DNA of 64,000 bases from Candidatus Aminicenantales bacterium. GTDB taxonomy: Bacteria > Acidobacteriota > Aminicenantia > Aminicenantales > UBA4085. The notes below the pieces were generated by a model. The model ran no database searches and was not told the DNA's origin. It was given only the letters and a program-made list of their open reading frames with translations. Made by a program: the position numbers and the translations under genes. The stretch covers positions 1-64,000 of the forward strand of contig JBEKTZ010000016.1 in assembly GCA_049515535.1 (NCBI GenBank), in the 5' to 3' direction. Positions 22,046-53,570 of this stretch are shown piece after piece. The stretch's first letter is position 1, and each line of letters begins with the position of its first letter.

Positions 22046-22071
22046 GGAAACCGATACCTTTTCACGTCGAG

Positions 22072-22136
22072 GTCAAGGGACGAGCCTTTGCGGCGGAACT
22101 TGACCCCCGGGTAAAGCCCGGGGCCCCGGCCGCTGT
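22072..22136. repeat. Palindromic repeat copy A (short form, 63 bp net), fusA 5' UTR
   Basis: GTCAAGGGACGAGCC..CCCCGGGTAAAGCCCGGGGCCCCGGCCGCTGT; 5 mismatches to copy B. Confidence 0.9.
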
Positions 22137-22221
22137 GGCTAACTCATGGGCTTAGAACCGGTTAGGGGATAATCGCGGCGGTGAAATCTAAGCGATCAAG
22201 AGGCCCTATAAACGAGAATCC

Positions 22222-22256: not shown

Positions 22257-22355
22257 ATTGGGGTCGCGTCTACACTTTGCACTTTTAATGGAAAAAATAG
22301 ACGCGACCCCGATTACTTCCAAAGTGAAAGTGCAAAGTGTAGACGCGACCCCAAT
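22257..22355. repeat. 29-bp perfect inverted repeat (REPIN-like) with an internal third partial copy
   Basis: ATTGGGGTCGCGTCTACACTTTGCACTTT at 22257-22285, exact reverse complement at 22327-22355; TAGACGCGACCCC also at 22298-22310. Confidence 0.85.
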
Positions 22356-28665: not shown

Positions 28666-29257
28666 ATTTCAAATCGCAGATTTTTTCGAGCGCTTCGACC
28701 GCGGCCGTCCGGACATAAGGATTCGAGTCCTTCGAGAGGCGGACGAGAAGGGTTCGCGCCTCCTTCCCCCCGATTTCGCCGAGGGCCTGGGCCGCGTTAC
28801 GTTTGACCTCGACATTCGGGTCGTCGATGACGCCCTGGATATGCCTGACGGCTTCGGCGTTTTTCTTGAGGCTGAGGATCTTGAGGATAGCGCTTTTCAC
28901 GTACCAGGGCGGATGGGCCAGTCTCTCATAGATCTTGAAAATGGGACAATCGTCCCGGCGGGCGAGCTCCTGGACCGCTATGTCCCGGATTTCCTCGCTC
29001 GAGTCCGCCAGCAGTTCCATGAAAACGGCGCAGACCCATGGATGCGAAAGCCGGGCGATACCGTGCAACAGCTTGATCTTCTTGTCCCTGTTCTGGAGAA
29101 TGTCGATCCTGCGGAGGATGGCCTTGGTGATGGTTTCGGCGTCGGCCTCTTTGGCCTCCGCGGCTTTCATCTGTTCGAGGATATCCAGACCCGTCTCCTC
29201 GAATATCTCGGAATTGCCGTTGCGCGAGCGCCTGAGAAACTTGACCACTCTCGTCAT
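28658..29257 (-). CDS. HEAT-repeat protein
   Basis: [46 protein letters not shown] overlap with the ribBA stop. Confidence 0.85.
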
Positions 29258-30534
29258 ACCATTTCGAGGATATGGCCCATTTTTTCCTTTTTGGTCTTCA
29301 TGTATTGAAGATTGATCGTGTTCGGCGGGATCTCGATCGGGACGCGTTCGACGATTTCGAGGCCATAGCCGGTCAGCCCGAAGAATTTCCGCGGGTTGTT
29401 GGTCAACAGCCGGATTTTCTTGACCCCCAGCGAGACAAGGACCTGGGCGCCGATGCCGTAATCCCGCTGATCGGGCTTGAACCCCAGCAGCGTGTTGGCC
29501 TCGACCGTGTCCGCGCCCAGGTCCTGCATGGCGTAGGCTTTGATCTTGTTGGTCAGCCCGATGCCCCGCCCCTCGTGGTTGAGGATGTAGAGGATGACGC
29601 CTTTTCCGTCTTTTTCGATCTTTTCCATTGCCTGGTGGAGCTGGTCGCCGCAGTCGCAGCGGCAGGAGCCGAACGTGTCGCCGGTCATGCACTGGGAATG
29701 GGCCCGCACAAGCGTGGGTTCCTCGGCCCGGATCTCGCCCTTGACCAAGGCCAGATGGTTTTCGTGATGGATGATGTCTTCGAACACCGCGATCTTGAAA
29801 TCGCCGTATCGCGTCGGGAGTTCCGCTTCCTCGATCTTGACGACGAGGCATTCGTTTTTCATCCGGTAGTTGATCAGGTCGGCGATCGTCAGGATCGGGA
29901 TGCCGTGCTCCTCGCTGATCCGTTCGAGCTCGGGCATCCGGGCCATGGTCCCGTCCTCGTTCATGATCTCGCAGATCACGCCGGCCGGCGCCAGGCCGGC
30001 GAGCCGGGCCAGGTCCACGGCGGCTTCGGTTTGGCCGGCGCGAGCGAGGACGCCGCCCTCCTTGGCTTGAAGCGGGAAAATATGTCCGGGTCGGGCGAGG
30101 TCGGAAGGCTTCGTCTTCGGATCGACGGCCAGCCGCACGGTCCGCGCCCGGTCGTACGCGGAAATGCCCGTCGTGATTCCTTCGATCGCGTCGATGGAGA
30201 CGGTGAAGGCGGTCTGGAACCTGGCGGTGTTGTCCTGGACCATCAGCGGCAGATGGAGCTCCTCGAGCCTCGTTCTCGTCAAGGGCAGGCAGATGAGCCC
30301 TCGTCCGTGCTTGGACATAAAGTTGATGGCGTCGGGGGTGACTTTCTCAGCCGCGACCATCAGGTCGCCTTCGTTTTCACGGTCCTCGTCGTCGACGATG
30401 ATGATCAATTGTCCCCGACGGACGGCCCCGATCGCTTCTTCCACAGCGGCCGGGGCCCCGGGCTTTGCCCGGGGGTCCGCTTCCGCCGCGAAGGCTCGTC
30501 CCTTGACCGTGGCCGTCGCGCTTTTATTTTTCAT
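29254..30534 (-). CDS. ribBA: DHBP synthase / GTP cyclohydrolase II, with a 21-aa repeat-derived insert
   Basis: [50 protein letters not shown]. Confidence 0.97.
30443..30507. repeat. Palindromic repeat copy B (63 bp net), in frame in ribBA
   Basis: Encodes (V)[21 protein letters not shown]; 4 mismatches to copy C. Confidence 0.92.
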
Positions 30535-30553
30535 TCCGATCGATCCTCTAATC

Positions 30554-31144
30554 CTATTTTTTTGTTTGAGTTATCCAATTATACACATATTTGCCGATCA
30601 TGTCACACTCGACGTTGACCCGGTCTCCCGTCTTCAGGTCGCGGAGGTTGGAGTTTTCGAGGGTGATGGGGATGATCTCGACGTCGAAGGAGGACGGGGC
30701 CAGGGCCGCCACGGTCAGGCTGACCCCGTTCACGGCGACCGAACCCTTGGGGATGAAATAGGACCTGAATTCGCGGGGCAGGGACAAGCTCAGCCTTTTT
30801 CCCGGCTTTCGCGGGATCGCCCGGAGCAGGCGGGACGTGAAATCCACGTGGCCCATGACGAGATGCCCGCTGAGCGGCGAGGCCAAGGTCAAAGGGAGCT
30901 CCAGGTTCAACCGGAGCCCCGGTCGGAGCGTGCCGAGGCTCGAGCGTTCGATCGTTTCTTTGGAGAGGTTGAAAAAAAGAAGGCGGGCGTCCTTGCGGAT
31001 GACGCTCAGGCAGACGCCGTCGACCGCAACGCTCTCTCCGACCGCAAGGCGAGCCGTCACGTCCGGCGCTTCGACCGCCAGCTCTTTTTTGCCTTGGCGA
31101 TAGCCCCTGAAAAAGCCCGAATGCGTGATGATTCCCGTGAACAT
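30554..31144 (-). CDS. ribE: Riboflavin synthase
   Basis: [41 protein letters not shown]. Confidence 0.96.
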
Positions 31145-32244
31145 CAGAAATATCCTTCCAGGAGAGTGTCCTCTCCGATCCCGAATAAAGAAACCGTTCT
31201 CAGTCGAAGCGCGTCCTTGATTCCGGCGGCTCCCGCGCCGCCGAAAAATGACACAGCGTCTCTCCCGCCGATGAGGCGCGGAGAGAAAGAGAGCAGGACC
31301 TTATCCGCGAGCTTCCGTTCGAGAAACGCGGTCGCGGTTTGTCCCCCGCCTTCGACCAGGAGACTCGCGATCTCCTGCGTGCCGAGCTTGGCGAGAACCC
31401 GGCCGAGGTCGAGCCGCGGTCCGCGGGCGGGCAGGGATATGACTTCGACGCCGTTTCTCGTCAGCGCCTCTTTTTTCCGAAGGGGCGCGTTCGCGGCGGC
31501 GAAGACGATGATCTTTCCTTCCGGGAGCGTGGAGAGGATCCGCGCCTTTAGAGGAATCCGCAGGCCGGCGTCAAGGACAACGCGGGCGATCCTTTTCTTC
31601 GGCCAGTTGGGATGGCGGACGGTCAGACGCGGATCGTCGCGGAGGATGGTATTGATCCCGACCAGGAGTGCGTCGCATTCTCCGCGCAGGAGATGGGCGT
31701 ATTCGCGCGTCGCTTCCGCCGAGATCCACCGGGAATCGAACGTTTTCGTCGCCATTTTCCCGTCCAGGCTCAGGGCCGCTTTCAGCGTGACGAAGGGGAT
31801 CTTCCGGGTGATGTACTTGATGTAGCATTCGTTGAGGCGGCGGTTCCTCTCCGCGAGGAGGCCGACCGTGACGTCGAGTCCGGCCCGGCGCAGGGCGCGG
31901 ATGCCTTTGCGGAAAACGAGGGGATTGGGGTCGAGCGCGGAGACCACGACTTTCTTCAAGCCGGCGGTCAGGACGGCATCGACGCAGGGCGGCGTCCGGC
32001 CCCAGTGGACGCAGGGCTCGAGCGTCACGTACAGCGTCGCGCCATGGGCCCGCGCGCCCGCGCGCATCAGGGCCAGGGTCTCGGCGTGAGGATGGCCGGC
32101 GCCCAGATGATATCCATGCCCGACGATGACGTCGTTTTTTACGACCAGGGCTCCGACATAAGGATTGGGGCCGGCCCCGCCGATGGCCTTTTCCGCGAGG
32201 CCGTAGGCCATTTGCATGTACGCCGCGTCTTTAAGGTCGTTCAT
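31144..32244 (-). CDS. ribD: Riboflavin deaminase/reductase
   Basis: [34 protein letters not shown]. Confidence 0.96.
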
Positions 32245-33446: not shown

Positions 33447-35141
33447 ATGGATGGATGTATCTGGAAAATAGCGCCCGACAGCGAAGCGGCCGAACGGCTG
33501 GCCTCCGCGTTGGGCATTCCCCTGCCCATTTCCCGGATCCTCGTCAACCGGAAGATCAGGGAGCCGGAAGACGCGCATCGTTTTCTCTATGGCTCGCCCG
33601 ACCAGCTCCATGACCCTTATCTCATGCCGGGCATGAAAGCGGCCGTGGACCGTATTTTCCGGGCGATCGAAAGCGGCGAAAAGATCCTCATATTCGGCGA
33701 TTACGACGTGGACGGCGTGTTGTCCGTGGTGATGTTGCATAAGGCCCTTCAGTCGCTGGGGGCTGAGGTCGATTATTTCATCCCGGAGCGGCTCAAGGAA
33801 GGATACGGCATCAAGGACGAGCATATCGCGGTCGTTCTGGAACGCGGAGCGCGTCTGGTCATCAGCGTGGATTGCGGCGTCAAAGCCGTGGGGTTCGTCC
33901 GCTTGGCCAAGGAACAAGGCATCGATGTGATCATCACCGACCACCATCTTCCCGGAGATGAACTCCCGGAAGCCCTGGCCATTCTCGACCCCACGCTGGA
34001 AGCTTCGACCTATCCCGACCGGGGCCTGGCCGGCGTAGGCGTGGCTTTTAAGCTGATCCAGGCGCTGCTCGACCGCCAGGGCAAATCATCACGGCTCCGC
34101 CATTACATGAAGCTTGTCGCCATTGGAACGATCGCGGACGTGGCCAAGCTCACGGGCGAAAACAGGATCTTCGTCAAACAGGGGCTCAAGGAGCTCGAGA
34201 ACGTTTCCAATATCGGCCTGAAAAGCCTGATCGAGGTCGCCGGGCTGAAAGGCAAGAAGATTTCGGAGGGCGATATCGGGTTCCGCATCGGGCCGCGCAT
34301 CAACGCCGCCGGACGGATGGAGCACGCCGACCTGGCGGTCAAGCTGTTCTTCTCCGAATCCTCGGAGGATGCGCTTCCCCTTGCCCTCCTCCTGGACCGC
34401 AAGAATACCGACCGGCAGGCGACCGAGGAGAAGATTTACAAGCAGGCCTGCGAGCGCATCGAGAGCCGATCCCTGGACAAGAAACACAAGATCCTCATCC
34501 TGGGCTGCGATGAGTGGCACAAGGGCATCATCGGGATCGTGGCCTCGAAGCTTAAAAGCACTTACTGCCGTCCCGTCATCCTCTTCGTGTACGACGATGA
34601 AACGGCCTCCGGTTCGGGCCGAAGCATTCCGGAGTTCTCCCTGATCCAGTGCCTCGATGAGTGCCGGGAACATTTCCTGAGCTATGGAGGTCATGAATTG
34701 GCGGTCGGATGCACCCTCCGGACTGCTGATTTGCCGGCCTTCAAAAACGCGGCCAATGCCGTGGCCGCCTCCCGGATCAACGACGAAGATATCCGGAGAA
34801 AGATCGAAATCGATACGAGGCTTGATTTCGCCGAACTCGACGCGGCCTTCTTTACGCATCTCGGACTCCTCTCTCCGTTCGGCATGGGCAACCCCCGGCC
34901 CGTTTTCATGTCGGAGGACGTCGAGGTCGCCGGTCCGCCGAAGAGCTTGAAAAATGGCAAGCATGCGAAATTCCTGCTCCGCCAGAACGGCCGGCTGTTC
35001 GAGGCGGTCGGCTGGGGCAAAGGGGAATGGACGGAAGGCGTGCGCCAGGGCGACCGCGTCGCCGTGGCCTACGGCCTCCAATTTTCCTCTTATCTCGGCG
35101 AAGAGAAGCTGACGCTGGTCCTGGAAGGATTGAGGAAATGA
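33447..35141 (+). CDS. recJ: ssDNA exonuclease RecJ
   Basis: GDYDVDG, GYG, ITDHH, GTIADV, GPRINAAGR, GSGRS, PFGMGNP. Confidence 0.96.
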   Translation: MDGCIWKIAPDSEAAERLASALGIPLPISRILVNRKIREPEDAHRFLYGSPDQLHDPYLMPGMKAAVDRIFRAIESGEKILIFGDYDVDGVLSVVMLHKALQSLGAEVDYFIPERLKEGYGIKDEHIAVVLERGARLVISVDCGVKAVGFVRLAKEQGIDVIITDHHLPGDELPEALAILDPTLEASTYPDRGLAGVGVAFKLIQALLDRQGKSSRLRHYMKLVAIGTIADVAKLTGENRIFVKQGLKELENVSNIGLKSLIEVAGLKGKKISEGDIGFRIGPRINAAGRMEHADLAVKLFFSESSEDALPLALLLDRKNTDRQATEEKIYKQACERIESRSLDKKHKILILGCDEWHKGIIGIVASKLKSTYCRPVILFVYDDETASGSGRSIPEFSLIQCLDECREHFLSYGGHELAVGCTLRTADLPAFKNAANAVAASRINDEDIRRKIEIDTRLDFAELDAAFFTHLGLLSPFGMGNPRPVFMSEDVEVAGPPKSLKNGKHAKFLLRQNGRLFEAVGWGKGEWTEGVRQGDRVAVAYGLQFSSYLGEEKLTLVLEGLRK

Positions 35142-37171
35142 GCCTGAGGAAACGGCGGGGCGATTATAAGCTGAAAGCGGCCCGCTTGATCCGCCCCGTG
35201 CTCGTGATCCTCCTCGCGACGATCGTCCTTGTCATCCTGGGTTATCTCGTCCGCCAGATCCTTCAGTCGCGGCGCGCCGAACCCCCCCTAAAAAAAATCG
35301 GTCAAAAAAAAGTCGAACAGAGGGATCAGGTCCGGGTTTTCCAGTATCATAAAGATAAGGGATTGATCGAGGCCAAGGGCGATCGGAATTATCCCCAGGA
35401 CGAAAACACCATGCGCCTCGAAGGGCACGTCGAGGTTCTCGACCGCGGGCGGCAGGGCGGCCGCGAGATCAAGATGACAGGGGACCTCCTCGCGTATGAC
35501 AAGGAAATGGCCCATTTCTTTTTCAAGGGAAACGTCCGGGTTCAATTCAAGAATGTGACGATAGAAGGCCCGGAGTTCGAGTATAACCGGGCGGAAGACT
35601 TCATGAAGACATCGAGCGGCGTGAAAATCGCCTCTCCGACATTCAGCGGCTCTTCGAAAAAAGCCCTGTTTTTCGTGAAGGACGAGGGGCTGATCCTCGA
35701 AGAGGACCTCCAATTGACCGTCCGGCTGCGGCTCCCGACGGCGGACGGGGCCCCGGGCTTTGCCCGGAGGTCCACTTCCGCCGCGAAGGCTCGTCCCTTG
35801 ACTTCGGAGCCGTTCGTCCTGACCGGAAATAAGCTGACGTACGCTTTCCGGGATCGGCGGGGCAAGATGGAGGGGAATCTCGACATCGTCCACGGCCAGA
35901 GCCACGGCACGGCCGACAACGTCTATTTCGAGTTGTTCGATAAAACAGAGGAATTGAGGATCCTGAGGATTTCCGGCGGGGTCAAGCTCAACCTCGAGGA
36001 GCCCCGAAGGGCCGCCAAAAAGCCGCGCGCCGAAAAGACCCCCCCGCCGTCCCAGGTTCAGGAGCCGTCGATCAACCGGGAATTCCGTCTGGACTTGAGC
36101 GTGAGGCAGGCGATCGAGGCCGATGATATCAAACTGCAGGCTTATCTGAACAAGCCTCTCTTGCGCCTCATAGAATGCCGTGGGCACAGTTCCATTAAAT
36201 TTGACTTCGACTCGGGAGAAGCGACGCGGATCCAGGGCGATGACCTCGATCTGAATTTCAACACGGACGGAAGCTTCCGGGCCCTGAGCGTGGTCCGGGA
36301 GGCCCGCATCTCCGCCCTGGACAAGGACGGGAAGATTGTTCGCCTGATCGAAGGGACGGCCATGGCTTTGGACGTGGAAAACCGCATCCTGCGTGTCGGG
36401 GGAGAAGAAAGCCGGAGGGCGAGGATTTTTTCCTCCCAGAGCGACGTGTCCGGCGACGAGATTTCGATCCTGATCAGGCTGGACGACTTCGAAGCCAAAG
36501 GAAACGTCCAGATGAACTTCCGGCCGTCGCCGACGGAGGCTGAAGACCGGGGCTTTTTTTCCAGGGAAAAGCCCATCTTCGCGACCGCCCAGGGTCTGAG
36601 ATATTCTAGCCAGTCCAAGCGTTTCTTATTATGGGAGCGAGTGAGGACCTGGCAGGACAAGAGAATGCTCTCGGCCCAGGAGATCATCGTCGCTGAGGAC
36701 GCGGGCGACATCACCTGCCAGGGTGGCGTCCAATCCGTCTTTCCTCATACGCCCAAGGGCAAAGATAAGGAACAGCGCGTGGAGATCTCGGCCGGTAAAA
36801 TGCGCTTCGACCACGAGTCCAGCCAGGTGATCTACGAGGACAATTGTATTATGAAATCGGGAGCCGCCGTCCTGCAATGCGGGCTGATCACGGTCAATCC
36901 GGGGATCGGAGGCGGCGAAGTCCGCTCGATGCGCGCCGTCAAGGGGGGCGCCAAGGCCGTCACGATCGTGATGATCGAGAAAGAAGGGACCGGGGAGATC
37001 GCGGAATACGATGTCGAGAAGGATACGATCACGCTCACCGGCCGGCCCGAGCTGAAAGAGAAGGACAAAGGGACCGTTAAGGGGGATAAATTGACTTTCT
37101 ACCTGACCGATGGTAAAATCCTCGTCGAGACGAGGGATCAAGAACGGCCGGTGTCAGTCATCAAATCGTGA
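35138..37171 (+). CDS. Large LptC/LptA (OstA-like) multi-jellyroll protein, with a 21-aa repeat-derived insert
   Basis: N-terminal TM anchor, beta-rich body, LptA-like C-terminus (ITLTGRPEL..TVKGDKLTFY); directly upstream of lptB. Confidence 0.8.
   Translation: MSLRKRRGDYKLKAARLIRPVLVILLATIVLVILGYLVRQILQSRRAEPPLKKIGQKKVEQRDQVRVFQYHKDKGLIEAKGDRNYPQDENTMRLEGHVEVLDRGRQGGREIKMTGDLLAYDKEMAHFFFKGNVRVQFKNVTIEGPEFEYNRAEDFMKTSSGVKIASPTFSGSSKKALFFVKDEGLILEEDLQLTVRLRLPTADGAPGFARRSTSAAKARPLTSEPFVLTGNKLTYAFRDRRGKMEGNLDIVHGQSHGTADNVYFELFDKTEELRILRISGGVKLNLEEPRRAAKKPRAEKTPPPSQVQEPSINREFRLDLSVRQAIEADDIKLQAYLNKPLLRLIECRGHSSIKFDFDSGEATRIQGDDLDLNFNTDGSFRALSVVREARISALDKDGKIVRLIEGTAMALDVENRILRVGGEESRRARIFSSQSDVSGDEISILIRLDDFEAKGNVQMNFRPSPTEAEDRGFFSREKPIFATAQGLRYSSQSKRFLLWERVRTWQDKRMLSAQEIIVAEDAGDITCQGGVQSVFPHTPKGKDKEQRVEISAGKMRFDHESSQVIYEDNCIMKSGAAVLQCGLITVNPGIGGGEVRSMRAVKGGAKAVTIVMIEKEGTGEIAEYDVEKDTITLTGRPELKEKDKGTVKGDKLTFYLTDGKILVETRDQERPVSVIKS
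35738..35802. repeat. Palindromic repeat copy C (63 bp net), in frame in the lptC/A-like gene
   Basis: Encodes (T)[21 protein letters not shown]; opposite orientation relative to its host gene compared with copy B. Confidence 0.92.
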
Positions 37172-47155: not shown

Positions 47156-47323
47156 TTGGGGAAATTCAGGTCAATTCGGCGGATCCCGTCTTCGATCAGC
47201 CCAGCCGGTTTGCCCTCCTTCTGACCAGGGTTTCCCAGGCGTCGGCCGCCTGGACATTCTGCGAGGGTGTTCTCCGCTCTTAATAATAGACGGGGATTCC
47301 TATCCTGAATCTCATTTCGCCAA
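47156..47323. ncRNA. Candidate long irregular hairpin RNA, unidentified
   Basis: Nested complementary pairs ATTCAGG/CCTGAAT, CCCGTCT/AGACGGG, CCCTC/GAGGG, CCAGGCG/CGCCTGG. Confidence 0.35.
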
Positions 47324-47407
47324 TGATCAGGGGTTGGAAGGGAGAGGAGGAAACTCGGGGATCGCCGGCTTCTTCCTCATCGCCCGCGATGGATTCATGG
47401 ATTCCGG

Positions 47408-47511
47408 GTCAAGGGACGAGCCTTCGGCTCGCCACTCGCCCGTGGCTTATAGCCTCGGGCGAGTACCGCGGAAGTGGACCCCCGGGCAAAGCCCGGGGCC
47501 CCGTCCGCTGT
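47408..47511. repeat. Palindromic repeat copy D (long form, 102 bp net), 12 nt after the tolB stop
   Basis: Short-form sequence plus a 39-bp internal hairpin module. Confidence 0.9.
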
Positions 47512-47523
47512 CAAGGTTTCGTC

Positions 47524-48861
47524 TCAGATTCCGTTGGACCAATCGGGCCAGGTGTTCTGGCCCTTGAACGTGAGCTGGCGGACGTTGGCGCCGTCGTAAT
47601 CGACCGTAAAGATCTGGAGCCCGCCCTTCATGTTCGACTTGAAGACGATGTGGCGGCCGTCGGGCGACCAGGCCGGCGATTCGTTCATGGCGTTGCTTCC
47701 GGTCAGCTCGGTCAGCTTCGAGATCTGTTGTGTATGGAGGTCCAGGAGATAAAGGTCGAAGATATTTTCGACGCGCGCGACAAAGACGATCCGGTCGCCG
47801 ACGGGCGACCAGGCCGGCGAATCGCAGTGGGTCGAGCCGCCGAAGCTCGCCCGCTGGACATTCGAGCCCTCGGCGTCCATAGTGTAGATTTGCGGAGTCC
47901 CGCCCCTGTCGGAGACGAAGACGATTTGCCGTCCGGTCGGCGACCAGGACGGCGCCGTATCCGTTCCCTGATTGAAGGTCAATCGCTTGATGCGGAAACT
48001 GCCGCGTTTCAAGCTGTCTTCGTCGATGTCGGCGATATAGATTTCCATGTTTCCGTCTTGATCTCTCGTCGAGCTGAAGGCCAGCTTTTTGCCGTCGGGC
48101 GACCAGGCCGGAGCGGAACTGATCCCCTTCGTCGAGACCGCGATTCGCCGTCCTTCGTAGACCTGCAGAATGTACAGCCCGGCCGTAAGGCTCTGGTAAG
48201 ACGTGTAGGCGATCATTTTGCCGTCCGGCGAAAAGGCCGGACTGATGTCGTCCACTTTATTGAACGTCAGGCGCGTCTGGTTGGCACCGTCGTAATCCAT
48301 CATGTAGATTTCATGGTTGCCGTCGCGGTCTGAGACGAAGGCGATCTTCGTCTCGAAGACCGGTTTTTCGCCGTAGGCCTTCATGATCTCGTCCGCCATG
48401 CGGTGGGCCAGATACCGAAGGTCGGTCTTTTTGGCCTGGTAGCGCTTGGGCACGATGATCTGCCGCTTCGACTTGACGTCATAGAGGTTCCGCTCGAAAG
48501 CGATGTCCCCGCCCGCGATCTCGGCGACTTCGCCGGTGAAAAGGAGGTTGGCCTGGATGGATTCCCAGTCCTTGAACTGGATGTTTTTCGGGTCGAGCGG
48601 GCGGATGTAGTCGTAATAGCTCTTGGGCAGGAGCTGAAAGATGCGGCTGTATTTCAGATCGTCGGCGAGGACCTGAAAGATCTCGTCGGCCGCGGGCTGC
48701 GCCTCGGGCGTCGCGACGGTGAATTTGGGGAGGGCGAAACTGATCGCCGGAATCCCGTCTTTTATGATCAGGTGGAATTCCTGTTGGGAATGAAGAATCC
48801 GGCCGAAGGCCAGCAAGGCGAGAAAGATCAACGCGGAGGAGACGATTTTTGTCGTTTTCAT
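47524..48861 (-). CDS. tolB: TolB
   Basis: TolB N-domain and PD40 repeats (PAWSPDG). Confidence 0.92.
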
Positions 48862-53466: not shown

Positions 53467-53570
53467 ACGGCGGACGGGGCCCCGGGCTTTACCCGGGGGT
53501 CCACTTCCGCCGTACTCGCCCGTGGATATAAGCCACGGGCGAGTGGCGAGCCGAAGGCTCGTCCCTTGAC
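53467..53570. repeat. Palindromic repeat copy E (long form, 102 bp net), between the helicase and uvrA
   Basis: Near-identical to the reverse complement of copy D. Confidence 0.9.

Follow-up and report, generated by a model that had tools for sequence, protein, structure and literature searches.

Short repeats lying in frame in many unrelated genes are known from Rickettsia, in the form of the Rickettsia palindromic elements (RPEs; Ogata et al. 2000), which are treated in part of PMC10969869. A different type of small element derives from the IS200/IS605 insertion sequences (IS). According to the portion of PMC10055086 cited here, their cleavage sites are marked by a transposon-adjacent motif (TAM) and a slightly different transposon-encoded motif (TEM), no target duplication is made, excision is scarless, and gene-less derivatives, termed PATEs, occur. 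In the cited portion of PMC6006769, IS608 and ISDra2 are said to target the lagging-strand template. The present work describes a locus that recalls both types of element. It lies in ribBA, which codes for 3,4-dihydroxy-2-butanone 4-phosphate (DHBP) synthase and GTP cyclohydrolase II in a single protein, within a 64,000-nt stretch of DNA from a Candidatus Aminicenantales bacterium (assembly GCA_049515535.1, contig JBEKTZ010000016.1, positions 1 to 64,000), hereafter the window. The reading considered probable as a whole is that a 63-nt mobile element, moved by a Y1-type transposase, has been inserted in ribBA, is read through, and adds 21 tolerated residues to the tail of the enzyme.

In their consequences such insertions appear RPE-like, and in their chemistry PATE-like. 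As the RPEs are described in the cited part of the literature, both families consist of short palindromic repeats which lie in frame in unrelated metabolic genes, add a conserved peptide and leave the protein undestroyed, and in both about one third to one half of the copies touch open reading frames (ORFs). The comparison, made by description, also reveals differences: the host belongs to another phylum, the modules measure 63, 102 and 165 nt as opposed to some 100-150 bp in the RPEs, and a 5-nt target motif together with a replication-strand bias points here to a Y1 transposase acting on single-stranded DNA. With the PATEs, as portrayed in that portion of PMC10055086, the element shares the lack of inverted ends, a fixed 5-nt adjacent motif, a similar motif at the far end (TCSAC and TTGAC), hairpins, a preference for one strand with respect to GC skew and a large number of copies. 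It departs from them in that neither an autonomous IS with the same ends nor a cognate TnpA was found in the genomes searched, and in that the short form has one dominant hairpin, the module lengths are multiples of three, and one fifth to one third of the loci lie in reading frames; for the last two of these traits no description among PATEs was found.

Two further groups are more distant. REPs (repetitive extragenic palindromes) and the REPINs with their RAYT genes, as covered by the cited portions of PMC3333891, PMC3337134 and PMC5581495, likewise are GC-rich imperfect palindromes of at least 100 copies per genome, accompanied by weak single-copy Y1-like genes. REPs are, however, extragenic, 20-40 nt long and clustered around the RAYT gene, whereas here no copy lies within about 1.5 kb of nine Y1 loci and 42 of 124 loci are inside called ORFs. 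Classical MITEs (transposable elements of the miniature inverted-repeat type), such as Correia, ERIC and BOX, are also small and non-autonomous and sometimes form intragenic in-frame fusions, yet they are defined, in the cited part of PMC10969869, by terminal inverted repeats and target-site duplications, neither of which was found here. In the literature outside subscription journals, no published description of the present repeat family was found, and nothing joined Aminicenantes with "miniature inverted-repeat" or with IS200; papers that combine Aminicenantes with repeat and palindromic are, by title or abstract, unrelated to this family.

A 21-codon insertion in ribBA

The extent of ribBA (29254..30534, minus strand; 426 residues including a 21-residue insert) was established from the ORF, its Pfam matches and the lengths of its orthologues. 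The latter were taken from 19 genomes of the same order, 18 of which were parsed for length: RibBA has 405 residues in 17 of these and 400 in one, and the window protein corresponds to 405 + 21. From a conserved ATG the parsed orthologues read M-x9-(E/D)(E/D/Q/T)A(I/L/V), with the consensus MExxxxTAxVEEAI; in genera of the same family ten residues precede the (E/D)(E/D)A(I/L) motif, e.g. MEKKRAAATVEEAIQ in the closest relative (87% identity). A first-pass annotation of the window had proposed an exact insertion of 21 codons, removal of which would restore the canonical N-terminus, and had stated that RibBA typically opens with a short EEAI-type motif. The alignment with the insert-free orthologues bears out the former proposal, and the insert-free form, beginning at the conserved ATG, is indeed the one that they carry.

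On the minus strand the gene begins ATG AAA AAT AAA AGC GCG ACG GCC ACG GTC. These are the ancestral codons 1-10 (30505..30534), whose ATG and length are the same in the orthologues. In the two closest orthologues four of five differences in this leader are third-position synonymous changes, and the leader is therefore coding. The insert follows as AAG GGA CGA ... GCC GCT GTG, after which the gene continues with GAA GAA GCG ATC. The empty sites of the orthologues are GTC GAA or GTC GAG, as in ACC GTC GAA GAG, where the window has ACG GT[C AAG ... GCT GT]G GAA GAA. The insert thus defined comprises 21 codons (11-31; net +63 nt), in frame, free of stops and inside the ancestral coding region. 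The event is the insertion of a 63-nt copy of a small, non-autonomous mobile element between the codons of Val10 and Glu11.

The inserted sequence is a copy of a repeat family, measuring 65 nt from GT to GT (30443..30507, minus strand; 30441-30508 by repeat search) and net 63 nt, and it differs from the short-form genome consensus at 2 positions. Within the window the 63-nt string has a single match, whether exact or with up to 3 mismatches, against 0 expected from 100 shuffles. Its boundaries are ambiguous by 2 nt, since GT stands at both ends. The two GTs had been taken as the boundaries of the element; the net length of 63 nt stands, but the GTs make better sense as the terminal letters of a target motif and an element motif than as a simple duplication, because (C/G)GA is conserved after the 3' GT in 102 aligned copies. 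With the boundaries of an IS200/IS605-type element, the same copy would occupy 30445..30507 on the plus strand and end in TTGAC (30503-30507), next to a target motif TCCAC at 30440..30444 (plus strand), which was recognised from the flank logo and equals GTGGA, the Val-Glu codons, on the coding strand. DNA and mRNA folds predict an imperfect hairpin at 30446..30489, with an outer stem GCGGC/GCCGC and an inner 8-bp stem CCCCGGGC/GCCCGGGG; the DNA fold of this copy amounts to -22.4 kcal/mol on the plus strand (z = -2.3) and -19.4 on the minus strand (z = -0.65).

The signals upstream of the insert are intact. A Shine-Dalgarno-like AGAGGA lies at 30544..30549 (minus strand), 9 nt before the ATG (30532-30534), and GGATTAGAGGA upstream of the ATG is conserved in several genera of the same family whose orthologue starts were read. 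The gene for riboflavin synthase, ribE (30554..31144, minus strand; identified by its ORF and the Pfam family Lum_binding), stops at 30554, 19 nt before the ribBA ATG, so that both the motif and the nearby ribE stop noted in the first-pass annotation are confirmed. Upstream of ribE is ribD, with RibD_C and deaminase domains.

Both enzyme domains of RibBA are complete: the DHBP_synthase family of Pfam is matched by residues 32-223 (profile positions 1-191 of 191) and GTP_cyclohydro2 by residues 235-399 (profile positions 4-165 of 165). The closest solved structure is the bifunctional RibBA 4i14 (E = 1.6e-135). There are 17 matches in the PDB, two of which are GTP cyclohydrolase II chains; all 15 homologues that contain DHBP synthase begin to align at query residues 26-31. 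In both databases homology thus sets in (residues 26-32) where the insert ends or slightly earlier. The genome of the window, G000, contains a single full-length RibBA match at E <= 1e-100, and among the matches listed at E <= 0.001 no second one spans the enzyme domains. With one full-length RibBA in the genome, the ribBA gene has to work.

Two long ORFs on the opposite strand, at 29272-30618 (plus strand, 448 residues) and 30164-31825 (plus strand, 553 residues), face ribBA, ribE and ribD. They are shadows typical of the GC content, not genes, and serve as a reminder that ORF length by itself misleads here.

A probable second insertion at the same codon

RibBA also measures 426 residues in G021, a genome from another GTDB family of the order, where an element copy stands at the same codon and is followed by CGA. 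The same insert is present in G157, a second species of that genus (g13). The two g13 copies have five derived changes in common, among them a lost 5' GT and a mismatch in the stem, and the G157 copy has one change beyond these; none of the five is seen in the window copy. The ribBA insert is absent from 19 other fetched genomes, mostly of the genus of G021 and including G189, which holds the element elsewhere. With a 47-residue query spanning the junction, the latter was found in 3 of 339 species of the class, namely G000, G021 and G157 only; for element-rich genomes 20 candidates were scored, and G014 and G008 were read directly. Some candidates for additional carriers (G137, G136, G240, G005 and several g13 genomes) were rejected, as their early RibBA matches were chance extensions into upstream DNA.

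The element itself is patchy in distribution. Of the 121 genomes sampled from the order 13 contain it: nine of 26 in the family of the window plus G000, three of 29 in the other family and none of 65 elsewhere. The simplest history would be two independent insertions at the same GT^(C/G)GA of the conserved Val-Glu codons, that in G021 and G157 being independent because their relatives lack the insert. The first-pass annotation had held that orthologues with the same extension but without the DNA repeat would speak against an insertion. An extension is indeed present in G021 and G157, and it carries the repeat itself; it therefore supports the reading rather than refuting it.

The repeat family and its copies in other genes

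Profile searches with nhmmer located about 124 loci of the family in G000 (3.45 Mb, 32 contigs, 94% complete). They include 57 full short copies (65 nt, GT to GT) and 52 full long copies of 104 nt, in which two additional hairpins are present, plus partial copies and composites. The latter consist of a long copy nested in a short one at its internal GT^GGA, with a total of 167 nt. Subtraction of the shared GT yields net lengths of 63, 102 and 165 nt, each divisible by three, and the short form has no stop in five of its six frames. Full short copies deviate from the consensus at a mean of 2.8 of 65 positions. The long-form DNA is predicted to fold into three hairpins (z = -5.9 and -6.3). Rfam gave no family at its gathering score anywhere in the window. 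Three composites (G000:C2:350854-351020, C7:175408-175574 and C14:50706-50869) are of the 167-nt type with an identical junction in each; this recurrent junction points to a hot spot or, failing that, to a third form able to spread by itself.

The window holds five copies of the family. In addition to that in ribBA, a short-form copy at 22072..22136 (plus strand; 22071-22138 by repeat search) lies in no called ORF, and a second one at 35738..35802 (minus strand; 35737-35806 by repeat search) is antisense and in frame within an ORF of 714 residues (35027-37171, plus strand). The copy stands at residue 237 of that ORF, preceded by a weak LptC match (101-200) and followed by LptD_N (586-696). Two long-form copies of 104 nt (net 102) are found at 47408..47511 (plus strand) and 53467..53570 (minus strand). 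Other repeats occur in the vicinity: a perfect inverted repeat of 29 nt, its arms 41 nt apart (22257-22355), lies about 120 nt from the copy at 22072-22136, and four 42-nt direct repeats at a spacing of 135-159 nt (47642-48118) lie inside ORF 47290-48333, which is without a Pfam match and has a long-form copy at its 5' end.

Throughout the genome 42 of the 124 loci are inside called ORFs, 12 overlap the end of an ORF and 70 are intergenic. Pfam matches were obtained for 38 of the 42 element-bearing ORFs. The element is either spanned by a domain or has domains on its two sides in an aconitase-family protein, aldehyde:ferredoxin oxidoreductase (AFOR), glutamyl-tRNA synthetase (GluRS), iPGM and the LptC/LptD_N-like ORF, and in GT2, GT9, M28 and PIN proteins it lies inside or at the edge of a single-domain match. 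In GluRS (G000:C8:65740-65804, L060) an antisense copy forms a 21-residue in-frame insert at residues 243-263. In G008 and G014 the orthologous proteins align to residues 9/10-242/243 and again to 264-456, the two parts being contiguous in the DNA and residues 243-263 absent, and the match in G004 is 21 residues shorter than the query span. The element peptide is found in at least a dozen unrelated proteins, and in-frame insertion that adds a conserved peptide to unrelated proteins appears to be a property of the family.

Many copies are positioned near the beginning of the longest ORF, at most a few dozen codons in, e.g. in those of EPSP synthase and an epimerase, whose Pfam domains begin 70-110 residues in. 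Such copies probably lie upstream of the true start, and the case of ribBA therefore needed a test of its own. At the other end of a gene, the last 37 codons and stop context of an IspG (GcpE) ORF come from an antisense long-form copy (G000:C2:344880-344981, L043); out of 440 residues the Pfam domain reaches to residue 400, and the element seems to have lengthened the C-terminus or taken its place.

For 26 internal genic copies, the frames include 14 cases of the sense frame that is used in ribBA, seven of one antisense frame, three of the other open antisense frame and none of the frame that contains a stop. Compared with the availability of GTSGA in each codon phase, frame use differs (Monte Carlo p = 0.013, with small numbers and crude calls), which is only a hint of a frame preference. 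Called coding sequence contains 83% of the 19,285 GTSGA sites, as against just 34% of the copies lying in ORFs, a depletion as expected if selection removes most genic insertions.

Target motif, strand bias and movement

The flanks of 102 full copies were aligned. The 3' GT is followed by C or G. At the second flanking position G is found in 53 of the 57 short copies and 42 of the 45 long ones, and at the third A is found in 46 and 40 of them, respectively; the 5' flank is without conservation. Viewed on the other strand, TC(C/G)AC abuts one end and is followed by 63 nt ending in ...CCCTTGAC. All copies end in CCCTTGAC on this top strand, and TTGAC is comparable to the TCSAC target motif. Among the aligned copy ends no convincing terminal inverted repeats were seen on comparison by eye, the ends GTCAAGGGACGAGCC and ACGGCGGNCGGGGCC matching at about 6 of 14 positions. 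Insertion is directly 3' of a fixed adjacent motif, without target duplication, only GT being shared. The TAM-bearing top strand is on the strand of positive GC skew in 91 of 122 copies, consistently across contigs (Fisher p = 8e-8, a value overstated in that the copies share contigs and are not independent). The preferred strand is lagging-strand-template sequence, as described for IS608 and ISDra2 in the cited portion of PMC6006769.

The target motif, the strand bias and the absence of inverted ends fit a single-stranded DNA element of IS200/IS605 type, i.e. a PATE. Most likely the element moves as single-stranded DNA through the action in trans of an IS200/IS605-type (Y1 HUH) transposase; the assignment of the enzyme to the Y1 type is inferred from these features. 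It would land directly 3' of TC(C/G)AC on the top strand, which is GT^(C/G)GA on the other strand and, when in frame, represents a Val-Asp/Glu codon pair, with TTGAC at the other end of the element. An account of the flanking GT as a "core dinucleotide" of IS110 type was dropped in view of the 5-nt flank motif and the strand bias.

The source of such an enzyme was sought in the genome. G000 has two Y1_Tnp loci, one a canonical IS200-type tnpA with an internal TAA and the other a weaker match, and two IS110 loci. With the filters of nhmmer off, no element ends were detected beside either Y1 gene or beside the IS110 gene of the window; across the four transposase regions only one match is strong, and it represents an ordinary full copy (C1:204915-204979) lying some 1.9 kb downstream from the IS110 ORF on C1. 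The IS110 gene of the window is found at the start of the contig (473-901, minus strand; DEDD_Tnp_IS110, E = 2e-16), its second copy being at G000:C1:201969-202397.

An IS200-like block of 613 nt, 95% identical in G000 and G014, is located at G000:C9:107683-108682 (L063, with the TAA-interrupted tnpA) and on C51 of G014 (L067). It starts with TTGAC, ends with TTGACT and has a CCCCGCGG/CCGCGGGG hairpin (20 nt) near both ends. The block and the element have in common the TTGAC motif and a similar style of hairpin, and nothing beyond that. At least 11 copies of the IS200-like element are present in G020, and the Y1 proteins of element-rich genomes include a 150-residue IS200 type (G014) and a type of 230-360 residues. 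A solo perfect palindrome of the end hairpin of the block occurs at G000:C13:38160-38196, 35 nt from an element copy.

Probable translation of the insert

The length of the insert is a multiple of three, its frame is free of stops and the old start signals are intact, and for these reasons ribosomes most likely begin at the ancestral ATG with its untouched Shine-Dalgarno motif and read through the insert. RibBA would thereby gain 21 residues in its N-terminal tail, just ahead of the first helix of DHBP synthase, and would tolerate them. Translation and neutrality are here inferred. In solved homologues about 4 to at least 14 residues precede the first helix, and the length of the tail therefore varies naturally. 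The added residues are probably floppy: an AlphaFold2 (AF2) model built from a 19-sequence alignment gives a predicted local distance difference test score (pLDDT) below 50 for residues 1-28, with the helix beginning at residue 30, although the model is mediocre (mean pLDDT 64) and low confidence is no proof of disorder. In the predicted mRNA fold of 30400-30575 the element hairpin forms, and the pairing of the Shine-Dalgarno region varies with the way the stretch is cut.

Alternative explanations

Unitigs break within this highly repeated element, and a copy might in principle have been threaded wrongly into ribBA during assembly. Next to no credence is given to such an artefact in view of public metagenomes. 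Words of the region 30200-30800 are shared by 24 runs, of which three DNA runs from three studies (two of peat, one of groundwater) and one of two RNA runs were compared with the window. In each DNA run one contig extends from within ribBA to 30464-30468 and another from ribE down to 30480-30481, so that both flanks enter the proper end of the element, by 22-28 letters, and they do so at matching depth (125.7/126.8, 50.9/46.9 and ~7/6.7). What these contigs show is flank joined to element, not the whole insert spanned by a single molecule. The three DNA runs list no joint that leaves out the 63 nt, but contigs drop rare variants. Over the element, depth exceeds that of the flanks by a factor of hundreds and reflects the abundance of the family in those communities. 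The groundwater and one of the peat populations differ from the window at several flank positions, including two amino-acid and two silent changes in the ten leader codons, and the insert has therefore outlived some divergence. The same structure in the independent pair of genomes G021 and G157 likewise argues against an artefact. That pair could instead be taken as a sign of one ancient insertion, in the common ancestor of the two families, that was precisely excised everywhere else: the site is identical to the base, and the scarless excision of IS200/IS605 elements, as reported in the cited portion of PMC10055086, makes repeated clean loss possible. This history is very unlikely. The junction is confined to the three genomes named above out of 339 in the class, and the nearest relatives are insert-free on both sides (G014 and G008 for G000; G189, G166, G192 and other g13 species for G021 and G157), which would demand very many independent losses; no derived change is common to the window copy, 2 steps off the consensus, and the g13 copies, which are 5-6 steps off and have a broken 5' GT and a mismatched stem.

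A different alternative concerns the fate of the insert in the cell. The element could lie in a 5' untranslated region, translation having been reset to the GTG (Val31) that directly follows it, with the 30 codons led by the old ATG as at most a short upstream frame. Homology starts only at residues 26-32, a start at GTG would lose nothing conserved except the 10-residue leader, and many other copies are found a short way upstream of genes, such as those of EPSP synthase and the epimerase, for which the start taken from the longest ORF is probably too early. The leader is, however, conserved as protein in orthologues, the ancestral ATG, the AGAGGA and the spacing to the ribE stop are intact, the insert is open in that frame, and the GTG lacks a purine-rich Shine-Dalgarno sequence and lies at the base of a stable stem; its counterpart in G021 and G157 is GTC, not a start codon, and use of the next ATG there would remove the first conserved helix. 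A start at the GTG of VEEAI, which the first-pass annotation had named as a point to check, is thus unlikely, though possible in this genome. The insert might also have been kept as useful, either through the mRNA hairpin 49-92 nt into the coding region or through the tail peptide, with recurrence at one codon brought about by selection. Two lineages have been struck at the same codon, two g13 species still keep the insert, and keep it open, although the element ends have decayed, and it is present in three diverged populations. Recurrence is nevertheless explained by the 5-nt target motif of the element at the site, a dozen or more unrelated proteins contain the same peptide, the insert is missing from 336 of 339 genomes, and the stem is degraded in g13, all of which renders usefulness highly improbable. 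A bolder version, that a single-stranded DNA transposon has been shaped for life in genes and that its ribBA insert was co-opted to tune riboflavin synthesis in two families, takes as its basis the modules in multiples of three, the five open frames out of six, the Val-Asp/Glu target motif and the repeated capture at Val10/Glu11, with the frame still open once the element ends had decayed; it is regarded as a long shot.

Several observations also weigh against the favoured reading of a Y1-moved element that is read through and tolerated. The short form folds into one large hairpin and a 4-bp stem, rather than into clear hairpins at both ends. No element copy lies within about 1.5 kb of the two Y1 genes of G000 or of seven Y1 loci in five element-bearing relatives, and a Y1 TnpA-bearing IS with the ends of the element was not found in G000, at 94% completeness, or in these five. 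Out of 121 genomes of the order, 102 have Y1 genes and 13 have the element, with no association between the two, and the canonical IS200-type TnpA is a pseudogene in G000 and was seen in just 2 of 13 holders of the element. To these are added the dependence among the copies behind the strand bias, the gene calls, which come from a crude codon-usage caller made for this analysis, and the quality of the AF2 model. The metagenome contigs end inside the repeat, with fewer than the 31 element-side letters needed for a bridge call. In the RNA run (X23) two contigs cover 30322-30404 at about 92% likeness; they therefore derive from a conserved part of the gene of a relative and are silent on the insert. 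Finally, the whole fold is downstream of the GTG right after the element, and a start there would still give a complete enzyme.

Conclusions

In-frame insertion of a repeat is a known kind of event, to which the present work adds a second insertion at the same codon in a distant lineage. Also new are the exact empty site in hundreds of relatives, the genome-wide census with its target motif and strand bias, and the evidence from metagenome runs. The exact ends and the target motif are what is needed to search for the transposase. Recognition of the family helps to avoid the mis-annotation of such inserts as protein features or frameshifts in metagenome-assembled genomes. The biology of riboflavin is probably unchanged by the ribBA insert. 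The locus offers a clean natural experiment in which a selfish repeat lives inside an essential single-copy gene, with the point of insertion, the empty site in 300-odd relatives and an older second insertion at the same codon all visible.

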